In this document: positions 23,988-39,621 of the stretch, piece by piece | Layout of the letters: each line of letters begins with the position of its first letter | Position numbering within the stretch: the stretch's first letter is position 1 | Translations under genes and position numbers: made by a program | The notes under the pieces: generated by a model | Database searches by the model: none | What the model was told of the DNA's origin: nothing | Seen by the model: only the letters and a program-made list of their open reading frames with translations | Assembly (NCBI GenBank): GCA_963675595.2 | Contig: CAXXLZ010000002.1 | Span: 2,400,001 to 2,464,000 of the forward strand | Length of the DNA: 64,000 nucleotides | DNA from: Thermodesulfobacteriota bacterium | Lineage (GTDB): Bacteria; Desulfobacterota; Desulfarculia; JACQYL01 | Direction: 5' to 3'

Positions 23988-25490
23988 ATGAATCGCAAAA
24001 CCAACCCCCGAAGAGGCTCAACGGCCGTGGGGGTGCTTCTGCTCTTCTTCGTGCTTGGGATCATCTTTCCCTCACCTTCTTCCGCTTTGATGACGCCCAA
24101 GGAAGAGGCCGACATGGGGAAGGAGGTACTCCAGCAAATCAAACGCTCTTTCCCACTGGTGAAAGACGAATCGATCGAGGAATACATCAACAAGGTCGGA
24201 CATGAAATCGTAGAGCACGTGGGACATACGGACTTCCCCTACGAATTCTTCGTGGTGGACAACGGAGGTCTCAACGCTTTCGCCGTGCCGGGGGGCTATA
24301 TTTTCATATACCGGGGACTCATCGACATCATGTCCGGTGAAAGCGAGTTGGCCTCCGTGCTGAGCCACGAAATCGGACACGTCCAAGCAAGGCACATCGC
24401 TCGGCGCATGGAGCAATCCATGCCGTTGAACATCGCCACCATGGCGGCCGCTATTGCGGCCGTTTTGGCCGGAGGCGGCAAAGCAGCCACCGCCATCATC
24501 GCCGGAGCTACGGCGGCCAACGCCAGTTTCCAGTTGGCCTACAGCCGTCAGAACGAGGAAGAGGCGGACCGCCTCGGCATGAAATACCTGGAAGCCTCGG
24601 ACTACGACGTCCGTGCGTTTCCAATCGTGTTCAGAAAGATGGTCGAAAGCAAGTTTCTGAACTCCGATGCGGTTCCCACGTATCTCTCGACACACCCGGG
24701 TTTGAACGACCGAATCGTGTACATGGAAAACATGATCAACGCGGGCCAATATCCGGTCGATGAAGCCAAGGAAGACAAAACGAAAGAACGCTTCCTGGAA
24801 GCCAAGGTCAGGCTGATTGCTCTCTACGACCAACCGGAAGCCGGTACCTCCAAGTTGGAGGACATTGCAAAAGCCCAAGGCGGATCCCTTCCTCACTTCG
24901 GCATGGGTCTCCTTTTGGAGAGAGCCCGTCGAAACCATGAGGCCATGCAGGAATATTACAAGGCCATAAAATTGGACCCGGACAAACCCGAATATCTGAC
25001 CCAACTAGGCTCCGCCTGTTATTCCACGGGTAATTGCACGCAAGCTGCCGGCTACCTGGATCGAGCATTAAAGCTCGACCCCGACAATCCTCGTGCTTTA
25101 CTCTACATGGCCAGGGTGCGGCTGGAAGATCGACGCTACAAGGACGCTCAGAAACTTCTGGAGAAACTGAAACACATCGACCGCGACGACCTGGAAGTCT
25201 ACCAATACCTCGGGCTGGCCTATGGTCGCGACGGCCAACTGAGCCTGGCTCATGAGTATTACGCGGTGTATTTCGAACGTTCCGGCGATTTGAGAAACGC
25301 CCGGTACCACTACGATAAGGCTCTGGAATATGCTCAGGACGGCACTCGCAGGCAAGCTCTCAAAGATCGCATCCGTGAGCTGGAAAACCCGAAAAAGAAG
25401 AAGGAAGAGCCGCCTGTTGCTTTGGGACCTTCAGAGTCAGAGGGCGTTGGCAAGCTCGGCGGCCTGAGAGGCTTCCTCTTCGCCCAATAG
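23988..25490 (+). CDS. M48 family metalloprotease with TPR repeats (BepA/YfgC-like)
   Basis: NAFAVPGG, HEIGH zinc motif, YSRQNEEEAD, LSTHP, C-terminal TPRs. Confidence 0.9.
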   Translation: MNRKTNPRRGSTAVGVLLLFFVLGIIFPSPSSALMTPKEEADMGKEVLQQIKRSFPLVKDESIEEYINKVGHEIVEHVGHTDFPYEFFVVDNGGLNAFAVPGGYIFIYRGLIDIMSGESELASVLSHEIGHVQARHIARRMEQSMPLNIATMAAAIAAVLAGGGKAATAIIAGATAANASFQLAYSRQNEEEADRLGMKYLEASDYDVRAFPIVFRKMVESKFLNSDAVPTYLSTHPGLNDRIVYMENMINAGQYPVDEAKEDKTKERFLEAKVRLIALYDQPEAGTSKLEDIAKAQGGSLPHFGMGLLLERARRNHEAMQEYYKAIKLDPDKPEYLTQLGSACYSTGNCTQAAGYLDRALKLDPDNPRALLYMARVRLEDRRYKDAQKLLEKLKHIDRDDLEVYQYLGLAYGRDGQLSLAHEYYAVYFERSGDLRNARYHYDKALEYAQDGTRRQALKDRIRELENPKKKKEEPPVALGPSESEGVGKLGGLRGFLFAQ

Positions 25491-28400
25491 CCCTGCCGCC
25501 TCCGCCAATCGCCGGTAAAGAGGTTGAGCCTGCAAGTAGGCATGAGGCAGCTGGAGAGCGCGCAGCATCAACCGCATTTCCAATCGCAGATCTCCGGTTT
25601 CCCCGGCCGCACGTGCGGCCAAAGCAAAGGCTTCGAAGCTTCGAGGGTTGGTTCCGAGCATGCTTTCCACATAACGCATGGCTTCCTCGTACCAACCTTT
25701 ACCCACCAAGTATTTCACCGCCGAGACGTTGAAAGCCGCATCCTCCGGATCGTCCGACAGGACGGACTCTAAGACTTCCACGGCGCCTTCCTTGTCCCCC
25801 AGCGCCCACCGATAGTCCGCTCGTCCCAAGACCAATCGTTTCTCCAGGGGATGAGACGCCTGCAGCTCAGTGAAAACCGCTTCTCCGAGCTGAGAATCAT
25901 GATGATATCGAGCCGCACCCGCGAGAGCTCGTATGAGCGGCAAGGAATCCGGATGCACCGCGAGTCCCGCTTTCAAGACCTGCAGAGCTTTCTCCTCCCG
26001 GTCCTGAGCCAAAAGCAGTCTTACCGATTGGAGATATACATCGGAAAGCAGCCGGGGACGCAGCGCAACGGCTCGATCCAAGGCATGGGAGGCCTCTTCG
26101 ATGAGGCCGCGACAATCCGGCCCCATCAGGTCCCAATCATAGGACAAGCGAACTTCTCCCTCGACGTCGCCTTCAAGCGGATTTGCCGCCGCGTGACCAC
26201 AGGAGGCTCGAAACTTGTTTAGGAGCGCTTCCGCCTTGATTCGATAAGCCTTGATTTCTTGACTGTTGAGCTTCAGGACATGATCCGCCGCCCGGATCAC
26301 TTCCTCCGGTGCGGCTCCCGACTTAAACAGAAAAGCGACATGCTCGGTTTCCAGATAGGGGAAGACCGGAAAAAGCTTTCTTGTCGTTTGGAGCCAAAGC
26401 ATTGCCGACCGCGTCGCGCGAGCGCCCTCCTCTATGGTTTTCGCGCGAGAGATACGCCGATCGAAGAAGCCATAGAAATAGAAGGCGCGAACCGGATCAT
26501 AGGGTTCCAGTGCTCGGGCACGCCGCAGGGCCTCCAACGAGGCGTTCTCCAGTTGCTCCGGCCCCTCTTCAAAGTCCTCTCGAGAATCGCCGTTCAGATT
26601 CTCCACCGCATCCCAGTACACCAGGGAAAGTTGCGTCTGAGATTGGGCGAAACCGGGGGCTAGTCGCACCTGCTCTTCGAACAACGAACAGGCCGTGCGC
26701 CACACGATTCGCCGCACGCGCGGCTCCGGATGATCCTGCGGCAGGAAAATGCCTCGCCTCCAGGCGGAGCCCGCGGCTCCCAGCATATCCGCGCGGGCGG
26801 GCTGAATACACCAGAACCAGGAGCACACCCCGAAAAAGACCACGCCCAGTCCGAATCCCACTCGCGAAAGCGTCCCCGCGCAACCTGCGAAACCACGTTG
26901 GTTCCCTCGGGACAACGACCAAGCCGCCGCAAGAAGACAGAGGATCACCCAAGCCGCATAGACCACTACGGAAAGGCTCCCCAATCGGGACATTCGGAGA
27001 ATTCCCCTTGCCGATTCCTCTGCACCGGAGCCCGTGAGCGACACCGTAAGGCTTCCCAGGAGAACATGGTGCGCGCCTTTAAGCAGGCAGAACGCCAGAA
27101 ATCCGAGAACTGCGGTCGACAACACCCCACGCAGAGCGCGGACGATCCATGCCGAAGAATTCGTCCCGCCTTTCCCGCTTTCCAGGGAAGCGGCGAAGCC
27201 GCCCCAAAGGACCGGCAACAAGAGCAGTCCGACATAGAACAGGACCGTCTTGGCTCTCATAGGAAAATGACCCGGAGCGAGAAAAGGCTTCAACGCATAC
27301 CCGAGGGAACTTCCCTCGTGAGGATACGCGTACACCAGTTGAGCCGCCTCCGGCAGCAGTTTCAAGCCCGGCACCGCTTGAACGAAGGAGAAAGTCATCG
27401 TGCCGCAGGCCAGAGCCAGGAGAATCCCGAAGACCGTCGCTCTGGAAGCATCCTCGTTTGTCGAGACGGACTGCGCAAGGCCTCCGGCCGAACTCTGCTC
27501 CCGGCCTTGCACTTCTCCGACCAACGAGCCGGATGCGACCGAAGACGACTCATCAGCTTGCCTCAGTCCGACTCCTCGCACGGCCACGGCCGCCAAAGCG
27601 CCCGCAAAGACCCAGAACAACGTGCGGGACGCCATGACTTCCAGACTCACCGCGGTCTCGGCCCAGTGAACGGCCAGAGATACCAGCAGCCCCACCAGTG
27701 GAAACCACACGCCGTGAACCGTACTTGATTTGAGCCTCCTCACCGGGGCGAACAAGACAAAGGCTGCGAGGCCGGCCAAAAAGCCCACATGAATGCCCAC
27801 ACCGATGAAAGGAAGGCCGAAAAGCACGATGGCTCCGCCCGCTCCGGTGCCGGCCCCCCCCCAAAGGGACACGACCAATCGACGACGCCTTGTTCGATCC
27901 ATGCGAAAGCCCAGCGAGGCTAGGCCGTAGGTTAGGATGCGCTGAAAAAGCAGCAGAAACACCGCGATTCCCGCAATCCCCGTGGACAGCATCAGGTCCA
28001 GACCAAGATTGTGCGCTCGATCCGCGCTTTCCGTGGGGGCATGGTGCGGCGCCATGGATGAGGGGTAATGGGCGCGAAACACCGCGGCCCCCTGCTCCCG
28101 GCCGAACCCGATGAGAAAGCGAATGGAATGCAGAGAATCCTCCACCGGTTCGGTTTCCGGATCGACTGGAACGGCCCTCATGGGAGGGTCGGAAAAAATG
28201 CCGTTGACATAGGCTTCCCAGTAATCGATCCGCTCTCTGACCGTTCCCGCACGCAAAGCTGTTTGCTGAGCGGTTTCCGCGGCATCGGAGAACAGCTCCG
28301 GGACCTCCCGGAAGTCCACCGTGCGGCTCCGAAGCCCGAAACCCAGAGCGAACAGAAGGATGAGGGCAACGGTGAACATCCACGCGGGCAAGGCCGACGA

Positions 28401-29399
28401 CACGGCTCTCGACCTTATGGTTCCCAGGAAGAATAGTACGGCCGACAAGCAGCCGAGCACCGGGAAGAGCCACCACGGGGCGTGAGGGCCCCCCGGCAGG
28501 AATCCCGTGGCGACGACCGGAGCGAGGCCTCCCGCGATTCCGGAGCCCATCAGGCAGATCACCGCCCGAATGCGCCCGCCTTGGACTACCGAATCCTTCC
28601 AGTGCCGACGGAATCGCCAGAGGATCATACCCGTGAGCACCAGCCCGAAAGCCAAAGCCAGGAAGGGGCCTCGGCTTTGGGTGAACCAGAGAACCAGAAG
28701 CTGCAGCAGAGCCGCCGACCCGTAAAGCATTGCCCGCCAGAGGACCAGACCCTCGTGCGCTCCGCTTTCCTTCGGCACACTCAGGTTCCGAAGAAACTCG
28801 GCCAAGGTGGGAAAAAACACCATGATCAGATACGCGCCCAGAAAGATGGGATTCCCCAAAGTGGACGCAATGCGATCCCGAGTCGGCTCACTCCAAGAAA
28901 GGGGGTCGATGCCGAAATACTGAGAAAGGCCGTACAGGCAAACGGGGATGCTGGTCCAGACGGTTGCCTGGAGCAGGAGTCGAAACGCCTTTGCGCTTCG
29001 CAGAAACAGCCAAACCGACAGGAACAGGACAAGAGAGGCCAGTAATGTGGCGAGTCCTCCAAACCGGAAGACCTCTCCCCGGAGAGCCACGCCGGGGCTC
29101 AGGGAAAAGAGCGTGGAGAGCACATTGACGGCAATAAACGCCGCCAGGGCGCGAGCCAAGGGAGACCCGAAGAAGGACCGTAGGGTTCGCCGAGAAAGCG
29201 GGACCATGAGAATGAGTGCGATCACCGATACGAGAGCGATCATTCTCAGAAGAATGCCTTTGTGGTACTCGAACACGCTCAGCGATTGGAGATTCATATG
29301 TAAAGGAACGACGACCGACGCGCAGAGCCAACAACATTCGGGCAATGCGGAAACGTAACGTTTAAGTCGTGAGATCGTGAATCGAGAAGGCACGTTCAA
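25437..29399 (-). CDS. Large O-antigen-ligase/O-oligosaccharyltransferase-family (Wzy_C) membrane protein with C-terminal TPRs
   Basis: RIASTLGNPIFLGAYL, TQSRGPFLAL, LIGFGRE, DRAHNLGLD; many TM segments; helical TPR-like tail. Confidence 0.8.
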   Translation of the reverse strand: MNVPSRFTISRLKRYVSALPECCWLCASVVVPLHMNLQSLSVFEYHKGILLRMIALVSVIALILMVPLSRRTLRSFFGSPLARALAAFIAVNVLSTLFSLSPGVALRGEVFRFGGLATLLASLVLFLSVWLFLRSAKAFRLLLQATVWTSIPVCLYGLSQYFGIDPLSWSEPTRDRIASTLGNPIFLGAYLIMVFFPTLAEFLRNLSVPKESGAHEGLVLWRAMLYGSAALLQLLVLWFTQSRGPFLALAFGLVLTGMILWRFRRHWKDSVVQGGRIRAVICLMGSGIAGGLAPVVATGFLPGGPHAPWWLFPVLGCLSAVLFFLGTIRSRAVSSALPAWMFTVALILLFALGFGLRSRTVDFREVPELFSDAAETAQQTALRAGTVRERIDYWEAYVNGIFSDPPMRAVPVDPETEPVEDSLHSIRFLIGFGREQGAAVFRAHYPSSMAPHHAPTESADRAHNLGLDLMLSTGIAGIAVFLLLFQRILTYGLASLGFRMDRTRRRRLVVSLWGGAGTGAGGAIVLFGLPFIGVGIHVGFLAGLAAFVLFAPVRRLKSSTVHGVWFPLVGLLVSLAVHWAETAVSLEVMASRTLFWVFAGALAAVAVRGVGLRQADESSSVASGSLVGEVQGREQSSAGGLAQSVSTNEDASRATVFGILLALACGTMTFSFVQAVPGLKLLPEAAQLVYAYPHEGSSLGYALKPFLAPGHFPMRAKTVLFYVGLLLLPVLWGGFAASLESGKGGTNSSAWIVRALRGVLSTAVLGFLAFCLLKGAHHVLLGSLTVSLTGSGAEESARGILRMSRLGSLSVVVYAAWVILCLLAAAWSLSRGNQRGFAGCAGTLSRVGFGLGVVFFGVCSWFWCIQPARADMLGAAGSAWRRGIFLPQDHPEPRVRRIVWRTACSLFEEQVRLAPGFAQSQTQLSLVYWDAVENLNGDSREDFEEGPEQLENASLEALRRARALEPYDPVRAFYFYGFFDRRISRAKTIEEGARATRSAMLWLQTTRKLFPVFPYLETEHVAFLFKSGAAPEEVIRAADHVLKLNSQEIKAYRIKAEALLNKFRASCGHAAANPLEGDVEGEVRLSYDWDLMGPDCRGLIEEASHALDRAVALRPRLLSDVYLQSVRLLLAQDREEKALQVLKAGLAVHPDSLPLIRALAGAARYHHDSQLGEAVFTELQASHPLEKRLVLGRADYRWALGDKEGAVEVLESVLSDDPEDAAFNVSAVKYLVGKGWYEEAMRYVESMLGTNPRSFEAFALAARAAGETGDLRLEMRLMLRALQLPHAYLQAQPLYRRLAEAAGLLGEEEASQAAELANAL

Positions 29400-29586
29400 A
29401 CTCTACTTATCTTTGCAGTGATTAAGCGGCATATGGATCGCTTCTTCTATGTGGAGGATTCTCATTCCAATATCATATCTTCTGGGTTCAGTAATCAACA
29501 TGTTGATTTTTCCACTCGATAAACACCAAGGCGAACCGGCGCATTCAAAGATTGGAGGACGGTTTGTTTCCGAACAACATTAAGAC

Positions 29587-29615
29587 TTGACCCTGTTTGT
29601 TGGATAGCGGATAAT
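29587..29615 (+). promoter_or_regulatory. Candidate sigma-70 promoter of the IPTL-CTERM genes
   Basis: TTGACC-17nt-GATAAT in the AT-rich divergent intergenic region. Confidence 0.4.
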
Positions 29616-29762
29616 TTTTAAGGGAATAGGCTGGGGATATTTTAGTCGCTCGCAGAGGAAAACAGGTCTCGCATTGATGATCGCCGTGCACACCCATACC
29701 GGCGGGGGCTTGGTTCGTCGGCTCAGCCTCCTCCATGCAAACGGCTTGACCAAGGAGCCCCC

Positions 29763-31055
29763 ATGCGAATTAGAGCAATGATCCTCCTGGCCGTGTTTGC
29801 GGCCCTTGTCGCGGTCGGCACGTCGGTCTTCGCCCAGCCGCCCTGGACCAAAACGATTTACGTGGACGGCGTGGGTTCCTCATGGCCTTCCAATTCGACG
29901 ATTTCCGGAACCGCTGGAACGGTTTTTTCCGTGGTGGACGAAATCAACCCTAATTCGATCCTGACGGAAACATGGGAACCGGGCTCACTGGACATGAGCT
30001 ACCGGACTTATGGGACGGCGCTTTCGACTACCGACGGCGACGGCACGGTGGTGATGACCAGTTCCTCCTACTCCGGCAAGATGGTGAAGACCTACACCCT
30101 CCTCCCCGGCTGCTGGACTCGAACCACGGTAGGAGAATATGTCTTTTCCTTGTATCTCAGGAGCAGACCCATCACGGTGACGCTCCAGCACGAAGGCCCC
30201 ATTTGGACCAAAACCGTCGACGGCGTTTCCTGGACTTCGGGATTGAGCCGGGAGAAGGAAACCGCCGATACCGTGCCGGTATCCGACGTGCTGAATCGAT
30301 GCGGCATCCTGACGGAAACCTGGAACCCGGACCGCCTGTCCATAGACTACGATCTGGTGAACGCCAACGTCGTTGATAACTCTTCCGGGCAATTCGTCAT
30401 CAGCACTACCGGGGTGCCCGCCTACGTAACCAAGACCTACACTCTGCTGCCCTGTGATTGGGAATCGGTGGCGGTCAATGAGCAGTTCCAGTATTTCAAC
30501 GGTTCCTCCTACACCACCGAGACTCGTCCTTTCACCCTGACCAAGGACCCTCCCGTGCTCGCCATTGCGGGTCAGGTTGAAACCCAGAAGGTGCTGCCCG
30601 GGTCGTTGGCCACCTTTTCCCTCACCTGCGGCAACACCGGAGGCTTCGACAACGCCGTCTCCGTGATCAGCTACTTCCCGGCCGAGGCTCCCTACGTTTC
30701 CGCGATCCCCTCGCCCACCATCGTCACGGGTACCGAGGCGGTGGAATGGCAATTTCCCAATGGCCTGAGCGCGGGCGATCCCTGCGGATTCCAGGTGACC
30801 GTTCAAATACTTCCGAACACCCAAATCGGGACGCCCATCGTCATTTCCAACGTAATCGTGGGGCATACCCGAGCCGTGGCCGACGTGTATCCCGATCCGG
30901 GTGACCCTCAGGACGACCCTTTTGTTTTCATCGCCGTCGGGGAGCCGGATCCTCCGGCGACGGTCTCCACCCTGACGGAATGGGGACTGTTGCTCTTCGC
31001 ACTCCTGCTTGCCGCCGGCTCAGTCCTGGTCCTGCGCAGACACCATAAGGTGTGA
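29763..31055 (+). CDS. Secreted Thr/Ser-rich surface protein with two internal repeats, a DUF11-like domain and an IPTL-CTERM-like sorting tail (paralogue 1)
   Basis: Signal peptide; C-terminal VSTLTEWGLLLFALLLAAGSVLVLRRHHK; ATFSLTCGNTG DUF11-like segment. Confidence 0.8.
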   Translation: MRIRAMILLAVFAALVAVGTSVFAQPPWTKTIYVDGVGSSWPSNSTISGTAGTVFSVVDEINPNSILTETWEPGSLDMSYRTYGTALSTTDGDGTVVMTSSSYSGKMVKTYTLLPGCWTRTTVGEYVFSLYLRSRPITVTLQHEGPIWTKTVDGVSWTSGLSREKETADTVPVSDVLNRCGILTETWNPDRLSIDYDLVNANVVDNSSGQFVISTTGVPAYVTKTYTLLPCDWESVAVNEQFQYFNGSSYTTETRPFTLTKDPPVLAIAGQVETQKVLPGSLATFSLTCGNTGGFDNAVSVISYFPAEAPYVSAIPSPTIVTGTEAVEWQFPNGLSAGDPCGFQVTVQILPNTQIGTPIVISNVIVGHTRAVADVYPDPGDPQDDPFVFIAVGEPDPPATVSTLTEWGLLLFALLLAAGSVLVLRRHHKV

Positions 31056-32578
31056 CGAAAACTTTTTCGAGCCTTCCAAGAAAGGCATTTTAAATTCCCT
31101 GTTCTTGGAACTATGCCCATGGGGGTTTCCTCCTCCACCGAAAGTCGTGGCGCGCGGCCGACGATCCTGTTGCGCCCGAACATAGAAACGACCAAGGAGC
31201 TCTTATGAGAATGCTTGCCGTAATTCTCGCCGTTGCGATTCTGTTTCCGGCCGCCTTTCCTGTTTTCGTACAAGCCTGGGACAAGACCATTTATGAGGAA
31301 GGACTTGAAGGGTCCTCCTCCAGCACCTGGTCACCGGGCATCACCGTGTCGCGGCCCGCGGGCGCCATTTTCACCGTGGTCGACGTAATCCCTCCGGAAA
31401 CCATCCTCACGGAAACCTGGTCACCGGGTCTCTTATCTTTGGAATACTCAACCGACGGATACGACATGCAAGCTTCGGACGTCGACGGCCTCATGGTCAT
31501 GACCAACTTTGAAGAGGAGGGCCCCGCTATGGCCGTCAAGACCTATACCCTCCTTGCCGGCTGTTGGACCCAAACAACCGTTGGAGAGTATCTGAATTCC
31601 GCCTATTTCGGTGGCCAGACTCACTCCTTGCCCTCCAAATCCCTCGGCAATTTCCAGTTGAGAAGGCTCAACGGCATTGGTATCCACAGGCCCATCACGG
31701 TGACGCAGCAGCCCGACGGGCCCGTTTGGACCAAGACCGTCGACGGTGTTTCCTGGACTTCGGGATTGAGCCGGGAGAAAGAAACCGCCGATACCGTACC
31801 CGTGTCGGATATCCTGAATCAATGCGGCATCCTGACGGAAACCTGGAACCCGGAACGGCTGTCCATGGATTACGCCCTGGTGAACGCCAATGTCATCGAA
31901 AACTCCTCGGGGCGATTCGTCATCAGCAGCACCGGAGCGCCCGCTTACGTGACCAAGACCTACACCATGCTGCCCTGTGATTGGGAATCCGTCACGGTCA
32001 ACGAGCAGTTCCAGTATTTCAACGGTTCCTCCTACACCACGGAGACCCGTCCTTTCACCCTGACCAAGGACCCGCCCGTGCTCGCCATTGCGGGTCAGGC
32101 TGAAACCCAAAAGGTGCTCCCCGGGTCGTTGGCCACCTTTTCCCTCACCTGCGGCAACACCGGAGGTTTCGACAACGCCGTCTCCGTAATCAGCTACTTT
32201 CCGGCGGAAGCTCCTTACGTTTCCGCGGTCCCCACGCCCACCATCGTCACGGGTACCGACGCGGTGGAATGGCAATTCCCCAATGGATTGAGCGTGGGCG
32301 ACCCCTGCGGATTCGAGGTGACCGTTCAAATACTTCCGAACACTCAAGTCGGCACGCCCATCGTCATTTCCAACGTAATTGTCGGACATACCCGAGCCGT
32401 GGCCGACATTTACCCGGATCCGGGAGATCCCCAGGAAGACCCTTATGTCTTCATTACCGGCGAGGAGCCGGATCCTCCGGCTACGGTCTCCACCTTGACG
32501 GAATGGGGACTGTTGCTTTTCGCACTCCTGCTTGCCGTCGGCTCAGTCCTGGTCCTACGCAGGCACCACAAGGCCTGA
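30168..32578 (+). repeat. Tandem duplication: 30168-31055 vs 31691-32578
   Basis: 888-bp colinear near-identical segments at a constant 1523-nt offset. Confidence 0.95.
31205..32578 (+). CDS. IPTL-CTERM-like surface protein (paralogue 2)
   Basis: Same architecture; C-terminal VSTLTEWGLLLFALLLAVGSVLVLRRHHK. Confidence 0.8.
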   Translation: MRMLAVILAVAILFPAAFPVFVQAWDKTIYEEGLEGSSSSTWSPGITVSRPAGAIFTVVDVIPPETILTETWSPGLLSLEYSTDGYDMQASDVDGLMVMTNFEEEGPAMAVKTYTLLAGCWTQTTVGEYLNSAYFGGQTHSLPSKSLGNFQLRRLNGIGIHRPITVTQQPDGPVWTKTVDGVSWTSGLSREKETADTVPVSDILNQCGILTETWNPERLSMDYALVNANVIENSSGRFVISSTGAPAYVTKTYTMLPCDWESVTVNEQFQYFNGSSYTTETRPFTLTKDPPVLAIAGQAETQKVLPGSLATFSLTCGNTGGFDNAVSVISYFPAEAPYVSAVPTPTIVTGTDAVEWQFPNGLSVGDPCGFEVTVQILPNTQVGTPIVISNVIVGHTRAVADIYPDPGDPQEDPYVFITGEEPDPPATVSTLTEWGLLLFALLLAVGSVLVLRRHHKA

Positions 32579-32602
32579 TCGGATTTCGCGGCCGAGCTGA
32601 AT

Positions 32603-32631
32603 CTCAAAGGGGGCCCCGGGCCCCCTTTGAG
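32603..32631. terminator. Perfect hairpin between convergent genes (possible bidirectional terminator)
   Basis: CTCAAAGGGGGCC-ccg-GGCCCCCTTTGAG. Confidence 0.6.
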
Positions 32632-32639
32632 TGGAACGA

Positions 32640-33557
32640 TCAGCCCTCCCCAGGCACCCTGCAACTTCGAATCCAGCGTCTCATGGAACCCTCCACACTC
32701 AAGGCCAGGGCTTTCAGACCGAAGCCCACACAGGCCGGATTCGTCCGGAGAGCCGACCATAGATAAGGTACCGCCTCCCTCCTGCCTCCCATCGGTTTTT
32801 TCATGAAAAGCAGAAATGCATACAGCAGAAGCTCCGCCCGGAACAACGACGGCAGGCCGGGAAAGGCGGGATCCTTCATCAGGATCAGCAAAGCCTGACG
32901 CAGCCCGGTGCCGATCTTATCCGAAAAGCTGGTGGCGCTGACGTTATGCGTCCGATAGTATACCAGGGGCTCATCGATGTAAGCCGCTTTGAACCAGCGA
33001 CTCAGCCGAATGTGATACAGCCAGTCCTCCGCCCCTTGTCTGAGGGTTTCATCGAAATAGCCCACCTCCTCCACGCAGGACTTTCGAATCATCACCGTGC
33101 TGGGAACCGGGTTCCAGTCGAGGGGTTTCAAACGAAAATCGCCCGGAGTTCTCGGACGACGTCGAAAGCGCGGGCGTCGGCGCAACCTTCCGGGGCCCGT
33201 CAGCAGCATCACCTCCGAGCACACCAGCCCTACTTCGGGGTGGCGATCCAGATAAGCCGCCTGAATGCTTATACGGCTGGGAACGGAAACGTCGTCCGCA
33301 TCCAAAAAAGCAATGTACTCCCCTCGAGCCATCCTCATCCCGATATTTCTTGCCGCAGATGCTCCGCGGTTTTCCTGCTCCACATACACAATTCGGTCAC
33401 CGTAAGCCGCAGCCGTTTCCGCCGTTTGGTCCACGGACCCGTCATTGACTACGATCACCTCCCTCGTGGGTCGCGATTCGGCGAGAACTCCGTCGATGGC
33501 TTCCTTCAAATACTCCCCCTGATTGTAGCAGGGAATGATGACTGAGACTTTGATCAT
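32640..33557 (-). CDS. Glycosyltransferase family 2
   Basis: VSVIIPCYN, VNDGSVD, ARNIG, FLDADD, EDW. Confidence 0.93.
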   Translation of the reverse strand: MIKVSVIIPCYNQGEYLKEAIDGVLAESRPTREVIVVNDGSVDQTAETAAAYGDRIVYVEQENRGASAARNIGMRMARGEYIAFLDADDVSVPSRISIQAAYLDRHPEVGLVCSEVMLLTGPGRLRRRPRFRRRPRTPGDFRLKPLDWNPVPSTVMIRKSCVEEVGYFDETLRQGAEDWLYHIRLSRWFKAAYIDEPLVYYRTHNVSATSFSDKIGTGLRQALLILMKDPAFPGLPSLFRAELLLYAFLLFMKKPMGGRREAVPYLWSALRTNPACVGFGLKALALSVEGSMRRWIRSCRVPGEG

Positions 33558-33664
33558 GTGAGTATCCCAATGATCTGAAATTTCTCGCCGGGCATGTCGT
33601 GGTCATTCCCATCCGGACGCGTCGGATGGCCGGAGCGATGTTTTCCGAACCCCTCCGACCATCT

Positions 33665-35158
33665 TCATTTTTCAACCCCCCGAAGCAGTTGAACAAGTCG
33701 GGCTGCCCGCTTGGTCAGCCATTTTGGACGGAACAACAGGATCGTCCCATAGAAGAACAGTCCGGTCATGGCCGGCTTCAAAAACAACCTCAAGGCCGCG
33801 TCCCAGTGGGCCACGGGAGTGAGAACGGAAACTCCGTGTACCACGGGGACGGTGGCCAGGGCCGCCCAGAAAGCCGGGAACACGGTTTCCCTAAATCGGG
33901 GCGATACGTAGCGCCGGACGGCCAGAAACAACAGGAACAGACCAAAAGCAAACGCGGTTCCCACCCCGATGCACGTGCCCGCAGAGCCCAAAAGCAGGGT
34001 GAGCGGCGTGCCGCACAACATGAGGACTCCGGCTTGAAGCCAGAAGATTCGAGCGCTTTTTCGGGGTTCCCCCAGGGCGTTAAGCAGTTCACCGCCGATG
34101 TCCGTCAGGGGACTGACCAGGGAGACCACCACCAGAAAACGGACGAAGACCACGCTTGGAAGCCAAGTTTCCCCGTAAAGTACTTCAACGAGTTCCGGCG
34201 CGGCCAGGAAAATACCCAGTGCCAACGGCAACCCGAAAGCCGAAGTGATCCACAGTACCAGCCCGGCAAAGGCGTCCAGTTCTTCTCTCTTCTCGGCCAA
34301 CCGGGCGAACGTAAAAAAGAATATCCGGTTGGAGGCTCCGGCGACGAGAATGTTGGGCCAGAACGCGATACGGTAGGCCCGATCGTAAAACCCCAGGGCG
34401 GCGGCCCCGACAAAAGTGCCCACCAGGAAGTCGTCGAAATGGCCGAGGAGGCTGCGAGCCAACCCGGCCAAGCCGACCAAGCCGCCGAATCGAATGAGGC
34501 CGACCGCGATTCTCTTGTCGAAGCTCCACTTGAATCGGAAGATCCCGGGCATTCCTTTGAGGAGCGACCACCACATACCTGCGGACACCAAGACCATGTT
34601 GCACGCGAACTGGACCGCCAGGGTCCAGTATCCCCATCCATGGTAAGCCAAGTAGAAAGCGGGGAGGTAGGATAAAGGAAATGCCGCGAGCCGGATCAGC
34701 CCTGTTCTCGAAAACTGCAGGTCTCGATCCAACAGAGCCGCCGGACCCGTCCCCAGAGAACCCACCAGACCCGCGGCGGCCAGGGCCAACAGCACATGAG
34801 CCACTCCCACGGGATAGCCCAAGCGCGGCAATATGGGCCAGGCGCACAGAGCGAGTGCCAAACCGAGCAGGCCGGCCGCCAGGTCGAGGGACAGACGGGT
34901 CCCCACGAGCTCACCCGTAATCTCGCCCTGGCGTGTGAGGGCCTGGTCAATGCCGAGTCGCGCCTGAATGTTCATGATGGAAAAGAAGAAAAGCCCCAGG
35001 GCGAACACCCCATACTCGTCCGGACGGATGAAGCGGATCAGAAACAGATTGGACAGGAACCCGAAAAAAATATTGAAATACGAAGCGCCGACGAAGATCA
35101 AGCCGCCTCGGGCGACCTTGACGGCCAATGAAGGTCCGTCTGAAGGAATGGGTTTCAT
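33665..35158 (-). CDS. Wzx-type oligosaccharide flippase
   Basis: Multi-TM; PDEYGVFA, GWGYWTL, LGFYDRAY, YGETW. Confidence 0.88.
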   Translation of the reverse strand: MKPIPSDGPSLAVKVARGGLIFVGASYFNIFFGFLSNLFLIRFIRPDEYGVFALGLFFFSIMNIQARLGIDQALTRQGEITGELVGTRLSLDLAAGLLGLALALCAWPILPRLGYPVGVAHVLLALAAAGLVGSLGTGPAALLDRDLQFSRTGLIRLAAFPLSYLPAFYLAYHGWGYWTLAVQFACNMVLVSAGMWWSLLKGMPGIFRFKWSFDKRIAVGLIRFGGLVGLAGLARSLLGHFDDFLVGTFVGAAALGFYDRAYRIAFWPNILVAGASNRIFFFTFARLAEKREELDAFAGLVLWITSAFGLPLALGIFLAAPELVEVLYGETWLPSVVFVRFLVVVSLVSPLTDIGGELLNALGEPRKSARIFWLQAGVLMLCGTPLTLLLGSAGTCIGVGTAFAFGLFLLFLAVRRYVSPRFRETVFPAFWAALATVPVVHGVSVLTPVAHWDAALRLFLKPAMTGLFFYGTILLFRPKWLTKRAARLVQLLRGVEK

Positions 35159-38307: not shown

Positions 38308-38781
38308 TCCAAAACACCCTAAGAACGTGAACCGGCCACGCCATGCCGTTCAACATGAATACTTTCACGATTGATCCGCTTCTCAGTCCGGCCTCCAAAC
38401 GTTCAAGACTACCGCCATGCTTGGCTCATTGTCCATCCGTGTTCACGCATACCGGCAAATCATCTTCGTCGACGAGCTTCAAGCACGACGGATTCCCTGA
38501 GCGTCGCAGCCATAGAGCACAATTCCTCAATTCGGTCGACCAAGCCATACAAGTTCGCAAACGCCGAATCTTTAATTCATTCTCGAAAAAATCACAAGGA
38601 CTGTGACCGTTGAGGCCCACGGAGCAATGACACAACGTTTTGTCCGCCCACGCCCGTCTGATATAATCAAAAGCAGCCGGTCGGATTCGGCGGTACACCG
38701 ACCCGGACCGCGCCCCCCGGCCCCGGAGAAGCATTGGGAATATTCAACAACCACGACGGACACGCTTCGTTGCTCCCCGAT

Positions 38782-39621
38782 ATGAGAACCATCGCGGGGT
38801 TGTTGTTCCTCGCCCTCATCCTATTGGGTCCCAACGGTCGCACCGAGGATTTCACCGTCTCGAGTTTCCCTCTTTCCGAGTCCGTGAGCCCCCACAAACC
38901 GCACCCGCACTTTCGGCGTCCTTCACCCGGCACTTCCTGGCAGATTCAGTTAAGCGGAGAGATCGACACCTCCTTCGATGTCCAGGTGTACGACATCGAT
39001 CTGTTTGACGCGCCTCAAACGGTCATTGACGCATTGCACCACAAAGGACGAATGGTCGTTTGCTACTTCAGCGCGGGTAGTTGGGAGGATTGGCGGCCGG
39101 ACGCCGATGAGTTCCCGGAATCGGTCAAGGGTCACGATCTGACCGGTTGGCCGGGAGAAAAATGGCTGGATATCCGGCGGCGGGACGTGCTCGGACCCAT
39201 CATGCGGGCGCGCTTGGACCTGGCCGAACGGAAGCGGTGCGACGGCGTGGACCCCGACAACGTCGATGGATACGCCAACAACACGGGTTTTGCCCTGACG
39301 GCCGAGGATCAAATCGACTTCAACCGCTGGATTGCGGATGAAGCGCACGCCAGGCATCTTTCCGTGGGCCTCAAGAATGATCTCGATCAGGTGAAGGTCT
39401 TGGAGCCCTATTTCGATTGGGCGCTGAACGAGCAGTGTTTCGAATATGAGGAATGCGACGCCCTTGTTCCCTTCGTCCAAAACAGGAAAGCGGTATTGGC
39501 CGTTGAATATGACGGGAACCCGGAAGATTTTTGCGCCGAAGCCTTTGCCATGGGCTTCGACCGGCTCCAAAAACATTGGGACTTGGATGCGTGGCGCATG
39601 GATTGTCGCGACTATCGGTAA
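38782..39621 (+). CDS. GH114 endo-alpha-1,4-polygalactosaminidase family protein, exported
   Basis: WQIQL, DIDLFD, CYFSAGSWEDWRPD, DGVDPDNVDGY, GLKND, NEQC, VEY. Confidence 0.9.
   Translation: MRTIAGLLFLALILLGPNGRTEDFTVSSFPLSESVSPHKPHPHFRRPSPGTSWQIQLSGEIDTSFDVQVYDIDLFDAPQTVIDALHHKGRMVVCYFSAGSWEDWRPDADEFPESVKGHDLTGWPGEKWLDIRRRDVLGPIMRARLDLAERKRCDGVDPDNVDGYANNTGFALTAEDQIDFNRWIADEAHARHLSVGLKNDLDQVKVLEPYFDWALNEQCFEYEECDALVPFVQNRKAVLAVEYDGNPEDFCAEAFAMGFDRLQKHWDLDAWRMDCRDYR

Follow-up and report, generated by a model that had tools for sequence, protein, structure and literature searches.

The closest described counterparts of the locus analyzed here are glycan loci for surface-layer (S-layer) proteins. 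WsfB of Paenibacillus alvei, a Wzy_C protein with TPRs, is the predicted S-layer transferase of that organism, and it shares with WsaB/WsaA of Geobacillus stearothermophilus, and with the system considered here, the combination of a Wzy_C domain and C-terminal TPRs in a glycan locus that also has an initiating transferase (PMC2943079; here and below, cited statements refer to the available parts of the papers). The protein O-transferases PglL and PilO provide a second comparison, and such transferase genes often lie beside those of their targets, as do pglL genes in 21 of 31 cases (PMC3643930). Further relatives are the ligase WaaL and the XrtA-associated ligases of family TIGR03097. The IPTL-CTERM sorting signal, which is carried by surface proteins, pairs with the exosortase XrtH. 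Here we describe a locus in a stretch of 64,000 nucleotides (the window; positions 2,400,001 to 2,464,000 of contig CAXXLZ010000002.1) from a Thermodesulfobacteriota bacterium (the host), in which the gene for a Wzy_C/TPR membrane glycosyltransferase (the ligase) lies with genes for two secreted paralogs bearing IPTL-CTERM-like tails (sp1 and sp2), a glycosyltransferase (GT2) and a Wzx-type flippase. The reading that we prefer, and to which we give an even chance, is that this region is one half of an imported, now split glycan-transfer operon of Chloroflexota type, likely serving protein O-glycosylation, with sp1 and sp2 as plausible clients.

The ligase compared with described Wzy_C proteins

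The ligase has approximately 18–20 membrane helices in its 1320 residues. A WaaL-fold domain at about residues 20–610 is followed by further membrane helices and, at about residues 1100–1300, by TPRs that hydropathy alone would place in the periplasm. The Wzy_C domain (PF04932) is broken by insertions, scoring 18.8 bits as a single hit and 42.2 bits when summed, above the cut-off of 31.7, and PF04932 was matched by 58 of 61 members of the ligase family at E ≤ 0.01. A predicted structure of the membrane domain (pLDDT 81) was compared with solved structures in a fold search, where WaaL (PDB 7tpg) came first with a Z score of 20.3 over 367 aligned residues and a root-mean-square deviation of 4.5; the next row had a Z score of 11.9, and SEDS proteins scored 10–12. 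The ligase profile found no match among PDB sequences. The database gene call is 34 amino acids shorter than the open reading frame (ORF), and the longer start is supported because E21 and L25 are invariant across the family; the ligase also keeps the family-invariant residues R243, R390, G431, G433, H463, H578 and E581.

The likeness to WsfB is one of architecture, not of sequence comparison. A further likeness is that the P. alvei transferase gene is transcribed separately from the main operon, whereas G. stearothermophilus differs in using Wzm/Wzt export where the present system has a Wzx exporter and a WecA-type initiator (PMC2943079). With PglL and PilO the ligase shares Arg, Arg and His in the same order, a second His/Glu pair, and a position beside a possible target gene (PMC3643930). 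The family consensus holds P-x-x-G-x-G, spaced as P313, G316 and G318 of PglL, with Phe at the Pro position in the window ligase, and G431/G433 and H578/E581 may correspond to G316, G318, H400 and E404 of PglL; all these correspondences are by order and spacing and not by alignment. WaaL is similar in fold and in its Wzy_C domain, but the ligase stands outside an LPS (lipopolysaccharide) core locus, has a long C-terminal membrane and TPR extension, and belongs to a family found mostly in LPS-free Chloroflexota. The idea of a Wzy_C enzyme that serves exosortase cargo is familiar from TIGR03097; however, none of the 61 family members matched that model, the host has a TIGR03097-like gene elsewhere, and the ligase family has no genomic link to any exosortase.

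The host genome (6.8 Mb, 98% complete, with LpxC) holds four further Wzy_C genes over the cut-off: one in the LPS core locus, with waaA, lpxK, a lipid A acyltransferase gene and heptosyltransferase genes; one near XrtA on C3, similar to TIGR03097; one belonging to the XrtD cluster; and the last in a glycosyltransferase cluster. Because of these four genes, the roles of WaaL and of an exosortase-associated ligase have other candidates, and the expectation that the ligase is distinct from the LPS-core-linked gene and from the XrtA-associated family was borne out. The LPS core locus encodes an 804-amino-acid fusion of Wzy_C and GT4 (L116:8491-10905, G000:C2:4030491-4032905), likely the WaaL of the host. 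A weak Wzy_C hit (E 0.03) among type VI secretion-like genes at L118 (G000:C2:962001-980000) looks spurious.

Chloroflexota-type relatives and the distant WecA block

In species genomes a profile scan gave 559 relatives of the ligase, and the locus counts given here are for the top 80 of these (80 loci in 79 genomes, 1.2 Mb). Among these best 80 matches, 75 were titled Chloroflexota or a group within it, and the ligase occurred in five Caldilineaceae loci. LpxC was found in none of five Chloroflexota-type ligase genomes, and Chloroflexota are described as lacking LPS genes in the available text of bioRxiv 10.1101/2025.08.19.671072. In close kin of the host the ligase was not detected, with TPR hits only in 40 relatives and no profile match in four genomes of the same order. 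Four of 400 genomes of the host phylum had the long ligase, including G484 and G176, which hold its closest full-length relatives, and eight gave weaker hits (E 1e-21 to 1e-30) in shorter frames. A phylogenetic tree of 47 of 67 rows, 40 of them random picks and the others chosen, grouped the ligase of the window with Chloroflexota-type members and not with four Wzy_C proteins of the host, at a weak support value of 83. Two side observations concern the family: in one Anaerolineae genome two of its ligase domains stand in tandem (L108:10007 and L108:13123), and at L212 (G187:C4) an isolated ligase gene from the same phylum as the host faces, in convergent orientation, genes for two secreted proteins without IPTL tails, one of 1753 amino acids with TSP3, PPC and BACON domains and one of 492 with beta-helix and PKD domains.

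The surroundings of the ligase gene in these loci follow a recurrent pattern. In 22 of 23 loci the ligase is preceded, at a distance of up to 2.5 kb, by a GT4b gene of the same orientation, and in 39 of 59 informative loci a WecA gene comes directly after it; the loci also hold genes for GT4 (48), epimerase (33) and UDP-glucose dehydrogenase (14). At L034 and L093, GT2s, a window-type Wzx, GT4b, the ligase and a long WecA form a single cluster, and the window Wzx is 39% and 37% identical to the flippases beside the ligase there. It had no match in 40 relatives at E ≤ 1e-10, and six of its seven homologs with an organism name are from Anaerolineae or Chloroflexi. Among the sequences compared, the best matches of GT2 were likewise in Chloroflexota ligase loci (44%, 38% and 37% identity, vs 33% for the best host paralog). 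The only host paralog of the window Wzx, 24% identical, is found at L121 (G000:C1:1256001-1274000), where this second Wzx is accompanied by GT2s and several GT-C-like membrane proteins.

The window cluster contains no initiating transferase gene; the nearest PF00953 gene is 48 kb off, and there is no PF02397 gene within 500 kb. At that distance two GT4 genes stand with a gene for a long WecA, which joins PF00953 to a CoA-binding-like domain (Table 1). The GT4b encoded there is 50–57% identical to its best matches in Chloroflexota ligase loci, vs 39% for the best of 40 relatives. Because the cluster lacks an initiator, the WecA block lies 48 kb away, and GT4b is Chloroflexota-like, we interpret the two parts as a pathway of Chloroflexota type that has been split and resides in an LPS producer, and the compact build-flip-transfer module proposed in an earlier note on this DNA is not supported. 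Two IS110 copies (C2:2474261 and C2:2480024), among the eight sites of the host, lie between the halves; the GT4-WecA gap showed no DNA similarity to the flanks of the ligase. The eight IS110-family transposases are 99.7–100% identical, indicating a recent expansion, and beside one copy (2980288-2981454) a 66-amino-acid frame with an over-cut-off IPTL-CTERM tail (G000:C2:2981510-2981590) is probably an interrupted IPTL gene. Transfer, in the direction from a Chloroflexota-type source to the host, appears quite probable.

The surface proteins and the acceptor of the glycan

The paralogs sp1 and sp2 are 72.5% identical overall, rising to 90% in the C-terminal 285 amino acids and falling to 55% in the first domain. 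sp1 consists of a signal peptide, two uncharacterized beta-sandwich domains that we call WK (residues 28–140 and 148–261), a DUF11-like domain, a Pro/Asp linker and an IPTL-like tail, and sp2 has the same architecture. Each has two hydrophobic segments, one per end, which fit a signal peptide and a tail of motif, transmembrane segment (TM) and basic residues. The tails read VSTLTEWG-TM-basic, with VST in place of IPT, and their assignment to IPTL-CTERM holds in the weaker form of a borderline likeness, since the scores straddle the TIGR04174 cut-off of 20.5 bits (15.9 for sp1 and 16.5 for sp2 as whole proteins, 21.0 and 20.1 in six-frame searches). The description of the proteins as Thr/Ser-rich similarly needs tempering: threonine plus serine make up 22% of sp1 and 20% of sp2, which exceeds the family mean of 15.2 ± 3.0% but is unremarkable for the host IPTL-like proteins (n = 18), which span 13–25%. 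A fold search with a model of the WK and DUF11 domains returned only generic tandem Ig-like matches, with TM-scores up to 0.48. A loop of sp2 (residues 125–161, window 31577-31687) is mostly absent from sp1 and varies between strains; it contains 14 of the 16 differences from the database variant P0018 and, in a second strain, a compensated 1-bp shift at 31605-31620. It is possibly a variable surface tip.

The system otherwise resembles that of XrtH and IPTL-CTERM (TIGR04177, TIGR04174, PF18203) in tail architecture, in having two XrtH-like enzymes, and in the 18 IPTL-like proteins of the host, identified with our own tail profile and by inspection. It differs in that tails and enzymes reach the cut-offs at best, and in that the protein bodies come from a family normally bearing YLP-box tails. 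The earlier note had suggested looking for xrtH elsewhere in the genome, and two XrtH-like genes are there, both scoring below the TIGR04177 cut-off of 86 bits (76.6 and 66.6), together with one XrtA and one XrtD. At L001, L002 and L112 the XrtH-like gene is followed by an overlapping gene for an unannotated membrane protein of approximately 230 amino acids, which ends in a SEC-C motif at L002.

A search of the genome collection with sp1 alone found no relatives. A profile search gave 293 hits at E ≤ 0.001, and the WK domain was present in 107 of the best 150 of these together with P0019. Of the 107 proteins, 58 end in a YLP-type tail as defined by our own pattern and none in an IPTL tail, the remainder being partial or having other tails; the NCBIfam YLP-box models (NF050076/NF053834) matched four of ten tails tested. 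The WK domain occurs in five of the 79 ligase genomes, all five Chloroflexota, and in none of 60 relatives. This distribution and the YLP-type tails therefore identify sp1 and sp2 as Chloroflexota-type bodies with a host-type tail, and exchange of tails between sorting systems is known (PMC3237569). Since a foreign gene of the same origin lies inside the foreign cluster, the sp pair probably arrived together with it. Tails of WK proteins are of at least five types, including VPGF-TM-basic (L180:2211-5291 and L191), IF-x-D-x-FE (L194) and a PEP-CTERM-like form (P0065). The VPGF-TM-basic type resembles the archaeal PGF-CTERM. Glycosyltransferase, epimerase or WecA genes were seen in six of 54 WK loci, with a WecA gene 1.3 kb away at L147, but these loci are mostly short and have no background count, so we do not count a link between the WK family and glycosylation genes as support.

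Under the preferred reading of a split, imported operon, WecA would load the first sugar onto undecaprenyl phosphate, GT4a, GT4b and GT2 would extend the lipid-linked glycan by a few sugars, and Wzx would flip the short glycan. The ligase would then transfer it in the periplasm, most likely onto Ser or Thr of exported proteins held by the TPR domain. In sp1 and sp2 the YLP-box tail would have been replaced by the IPTL-like tail, which XrtH-like enzymes of the host could process. Synthesis, flipping and transfer follow from known enzyme families, and for the acceptor we infer that a protein, as the earlier note had also proposed, is the likeliest and a reasonably probable candidate, because a WaaL-fold ligase here comes from LPS-free bacteria. 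Other considerations, partly by analogy, point the same way: Wzz is rare (a Wzz-like gene in one of 80 ligase loci by a single-query search), the Wzy_C and TPR combination is WsfB-like, the motifs resemble those of PglL in their order (PMC3643930), and a Caldilineae archaellin has probable O-glycans on Thr66 and Thr145 (PMC12488501). That sp1 and sp2 are among the clients of the ligase is a plausible prediction, which we hold tentatively.

What remains in any case is a conserved Wzy_C/TPR glycan-transfer operon that is common in Chloroflexota and uncharacterized, a variant of the known Wzy_C/TPR layout for O-glycosylation. Our literature search, which did not reach most subscription papers, found no functional account of the operon and no glycosylation system for IPTL cargo, and the accessible part of PMC13319060 makes no mention of glycosylation. 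Chloroflexota, with no LPS genes, unexplained multilayered envelopes and probable archaellin O-glycans, now have a named candidate transferase, and the host genome represents a natural transplant of the pathway into an LPS producer. The apparent exchange of a YLP-box tail for an IPTL-like one in this genome favors the reading of the YLP-box as a sorting signal. It is conceivable, though doubtful in its entirety, that the operon provides general protein O-glycosylation in Chloroflexota, that the host imported pathway and client and re-addressed the client from YLP-box to IPTL and exosortase, and that the TPR domain holds beta-sandwich domains so that Ser/Thr are glycosylated there and not in linkers. 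The TMTC enzymes, eukaryotic membrane transferases with TPRs that act on cadherins, would be the parallel (PMC7001481). If so, the WecA-GT4-Wzx-Wzy_C/TPR operon, in hundreds of Chloroflexota genomes, would supply the missing enzyme for surface-filament O-glycans.

A number of observations weigh against the preferred reading, concerning both origin and acceptor. A second tree (32 rows) joined the window ligase to same-phylum G484 and G176 on long branches, not nested among Chloroflexota, a join that long-branch attraction could have produced; 15 of 40 relatives have the long WecA too, and a tree did not place it clearly. No WK gene was found on the sampled ligase contig in any of the five genomes with both, nor a ligase gene in 54 WK loci, most of them short. 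From sequence by itself a protein transferase is indistinguishable from a lipid ligase or a polymerase. Unlike PglL and PilO, the ligase has a His-Glu spacing of 3 rather than 4 and no pilin neighbor, and none of the 61 family members matched the PglL-specific Pfam models (PglL_A and Wzy_C_2) at E ≤ 0.01; PF11846 had no match in the host genome and only marginal hits in 201 genomes of its phylum. No fixed client gene stands beside the ligase across the 80 loci, just six of which have a YLP-tailed protein. Thr/Ser-rich regions ahead of the tail have been taken as a hint of O-glycosylation in other sorting systems (bioRxiv 10.1101/2023.06.07.544157), and here the 30 residues ahead of the tail contain just 3% and 7% Thr plus Ser, the linker being Pro/Asp-rich. 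The only IPTL-CTERM protein that we found studied, an S-layer protein encoded beside glycosyltransferase genes, showed no glycans according to the available text of PMC8671808, in data that did not cover its C-terminal tail.

Three other explanations were considered. The first, from the earlier note, is a self-contained module reserved for IPTL-CTERM proteins, which would be a system found repeatedly across genomes and would here act on sp1 and sp2 alone; we regard it as highly improbable. Position speaks for it, since the two sp genes, within the cluster, are at distances of 1.8 and 3.2 kb from the midpoint of the ligase gene, whereas the other 16 IPTL-like genes of the host are at least 71 kb from any of its five Wzy_C genes; so do the shared foreign, Chloroflexota-type character of pair and cluster, the elevated Thr and Ser content, and the frequent adjacency of O-transferase genes to targets mentioned above for pglL. 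However, an IPTL-like tail or a WK relative of sp1/sp2 was present at none of the 80 ligase loci, and IPTL and XrtH exceeded their cut-offs in only one of 30 ligase genomes (assemblies of unreported completeness), the other 29 being without IPTL. Genome G066, which has the best BLAST match to the ligase among the 80, does have an XrtH-IPTL pair approximately 13 kb from the ligase, but its IPTL gene adjoins XrtH, as at L002, and is separated from the ligase by seven other genes. None of the four long-ligase genomes of the host phylum had XrtH, an over-cut-off IPTL protein, or an IPTL tail in the surrounding 20 kb; IPTL proteins occur without the ligase in the close relatives G001, G003 and G004; and the module would be without an initiating enzyme. 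The note itself had named missing linkage between ligase and IPTL genes as grounds for rejection, and linkage is absent in the genomes sampled. As a recurring system the dedicated module is refuted there, and the association with IPTL is peculiar to this single lineage.

More weight, though still on the unlikely side, belongs to a surface polysaccharide or glycolipid pathway, in which the Wzy_C protein would act as a polymerase or would ligate glycan to something other than protein, possibly a wall polymer or lipid in Chloroflexota and lipid A-core in the host (as a second WaaL), and sp1 and sp2 would be unrelated inserts. WecA, glycosyltransferases, Wzx and Wzy_C also make up the standard Wzx/Wzy layout. 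The ranking of WaaL and then SEDS polymerases among solved structures, the lack of a fixed client gene with so few YLP-tailed neighbors, and an LPS-making host also fit such a pathway. It is less easily reconciled with the scarcity of Wzz-like genes (none in the host either, again by a single-query search), with main ligase holders that have no LPS genes (bioRxiv 10.1101/2025.08.19.671072), with the core-linked Wzy_C gene that the host already has, and with a conserved TPR domain, which suits a protein acceptor (PMC2943079). The region could also be a rearranged relic with little or no activity, and sp1 and sp2 unglycosylated, adhesin-like passengers, as the split with IS110 copies between the halves and the strong divergence of the ligase, first or second among the rows of either tree, would suggest. 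This seems quite improbable to us, given that all eight ORFs are intact, that family-invariant residues are kept, that the GC content at third codon positions (0.66–0.74) is like that of housekeeping genes (0.64–0.72), and that the region is kept in related strains.

Locus layout and neighboring features

All five ORFs reported earlier for the window cluster (ligase, sp1, sp2, GT2 and wzx) are present (Table 1). Their order was largely as described, with the sp pair divergent from the ligase and converging on GT2, but the minus strand carries wzx, GT2 and the ligase alike, and the oppositely oriented sp pair stands between GT2 and ligase. The earlier note saw no wzz or LPS core genes in the cluster, which is flanked by housekeeping and transport genes (a bepA-like protease, an EmrB-type MFS protein and HlyD). 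An assembly artefact is made less likely by contigs from a second study, which belong to a strain approximately 1–2% different and together span most of the region piecewise.

Table 1. Features of the ligase locus and of the distant GT4-WecA block (window positions unless a contig is named).
Feature	Position	Strand	Basis or remark
Ligase (Wzy_C/TPR membrane glycosyltransferase), 1320 aa	25437..29399	-	ORF and domain searches
Divergent intergenic region	29400..29762	.	Promoter scan
sp1, secreted surface protein, 430 aa	29763..31055	+	ORF and profile searches
IPTL-CTERM-like sorting tail of sp1	30969..31055	+	TIGR04174 profile
sp2, tandem paralog of sp1, 457 aa	31205..32578	+	ORF and alignment
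IPTL-CTERM-like sorting tail of sp2	32492..32578	+	TIGR04174 profile
Perfect 13-bp hairpin between converging sp2 and GT2	32603..32631	.	z-scores on both strands
GT2 glycosyltransferase	32640..33557	-	Domain search
Wzx-type flippase, 497 aa	33665..35158	-	Domain search
GT4a, GT4b and long WecA (633 aa)	G000:C2:2483531-2488566 (= L123:1531-6566)	-	48 kb beyond wzx, same strand

Promoter and terminator scans of the locus gave results no better than chance. In the divergent intergenic region a sigma-70-like site faces sp1 (29587-29615, plus strand), at chance level with two sites found vs 2.3 expected, and a scan for the sigma-54 pattern found no site. The hairpin between sp2 and GT2 is a possible two-way terminator for both genes, with z-scores of -2.8 on the minus strand and -1.2 on the plus strand. 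Past an EmrAB-type pump, 3.5 kb from wzx, the window also encodes a secreted-looking GH114 glycoside hydrolase (38734-39621, plus strand).

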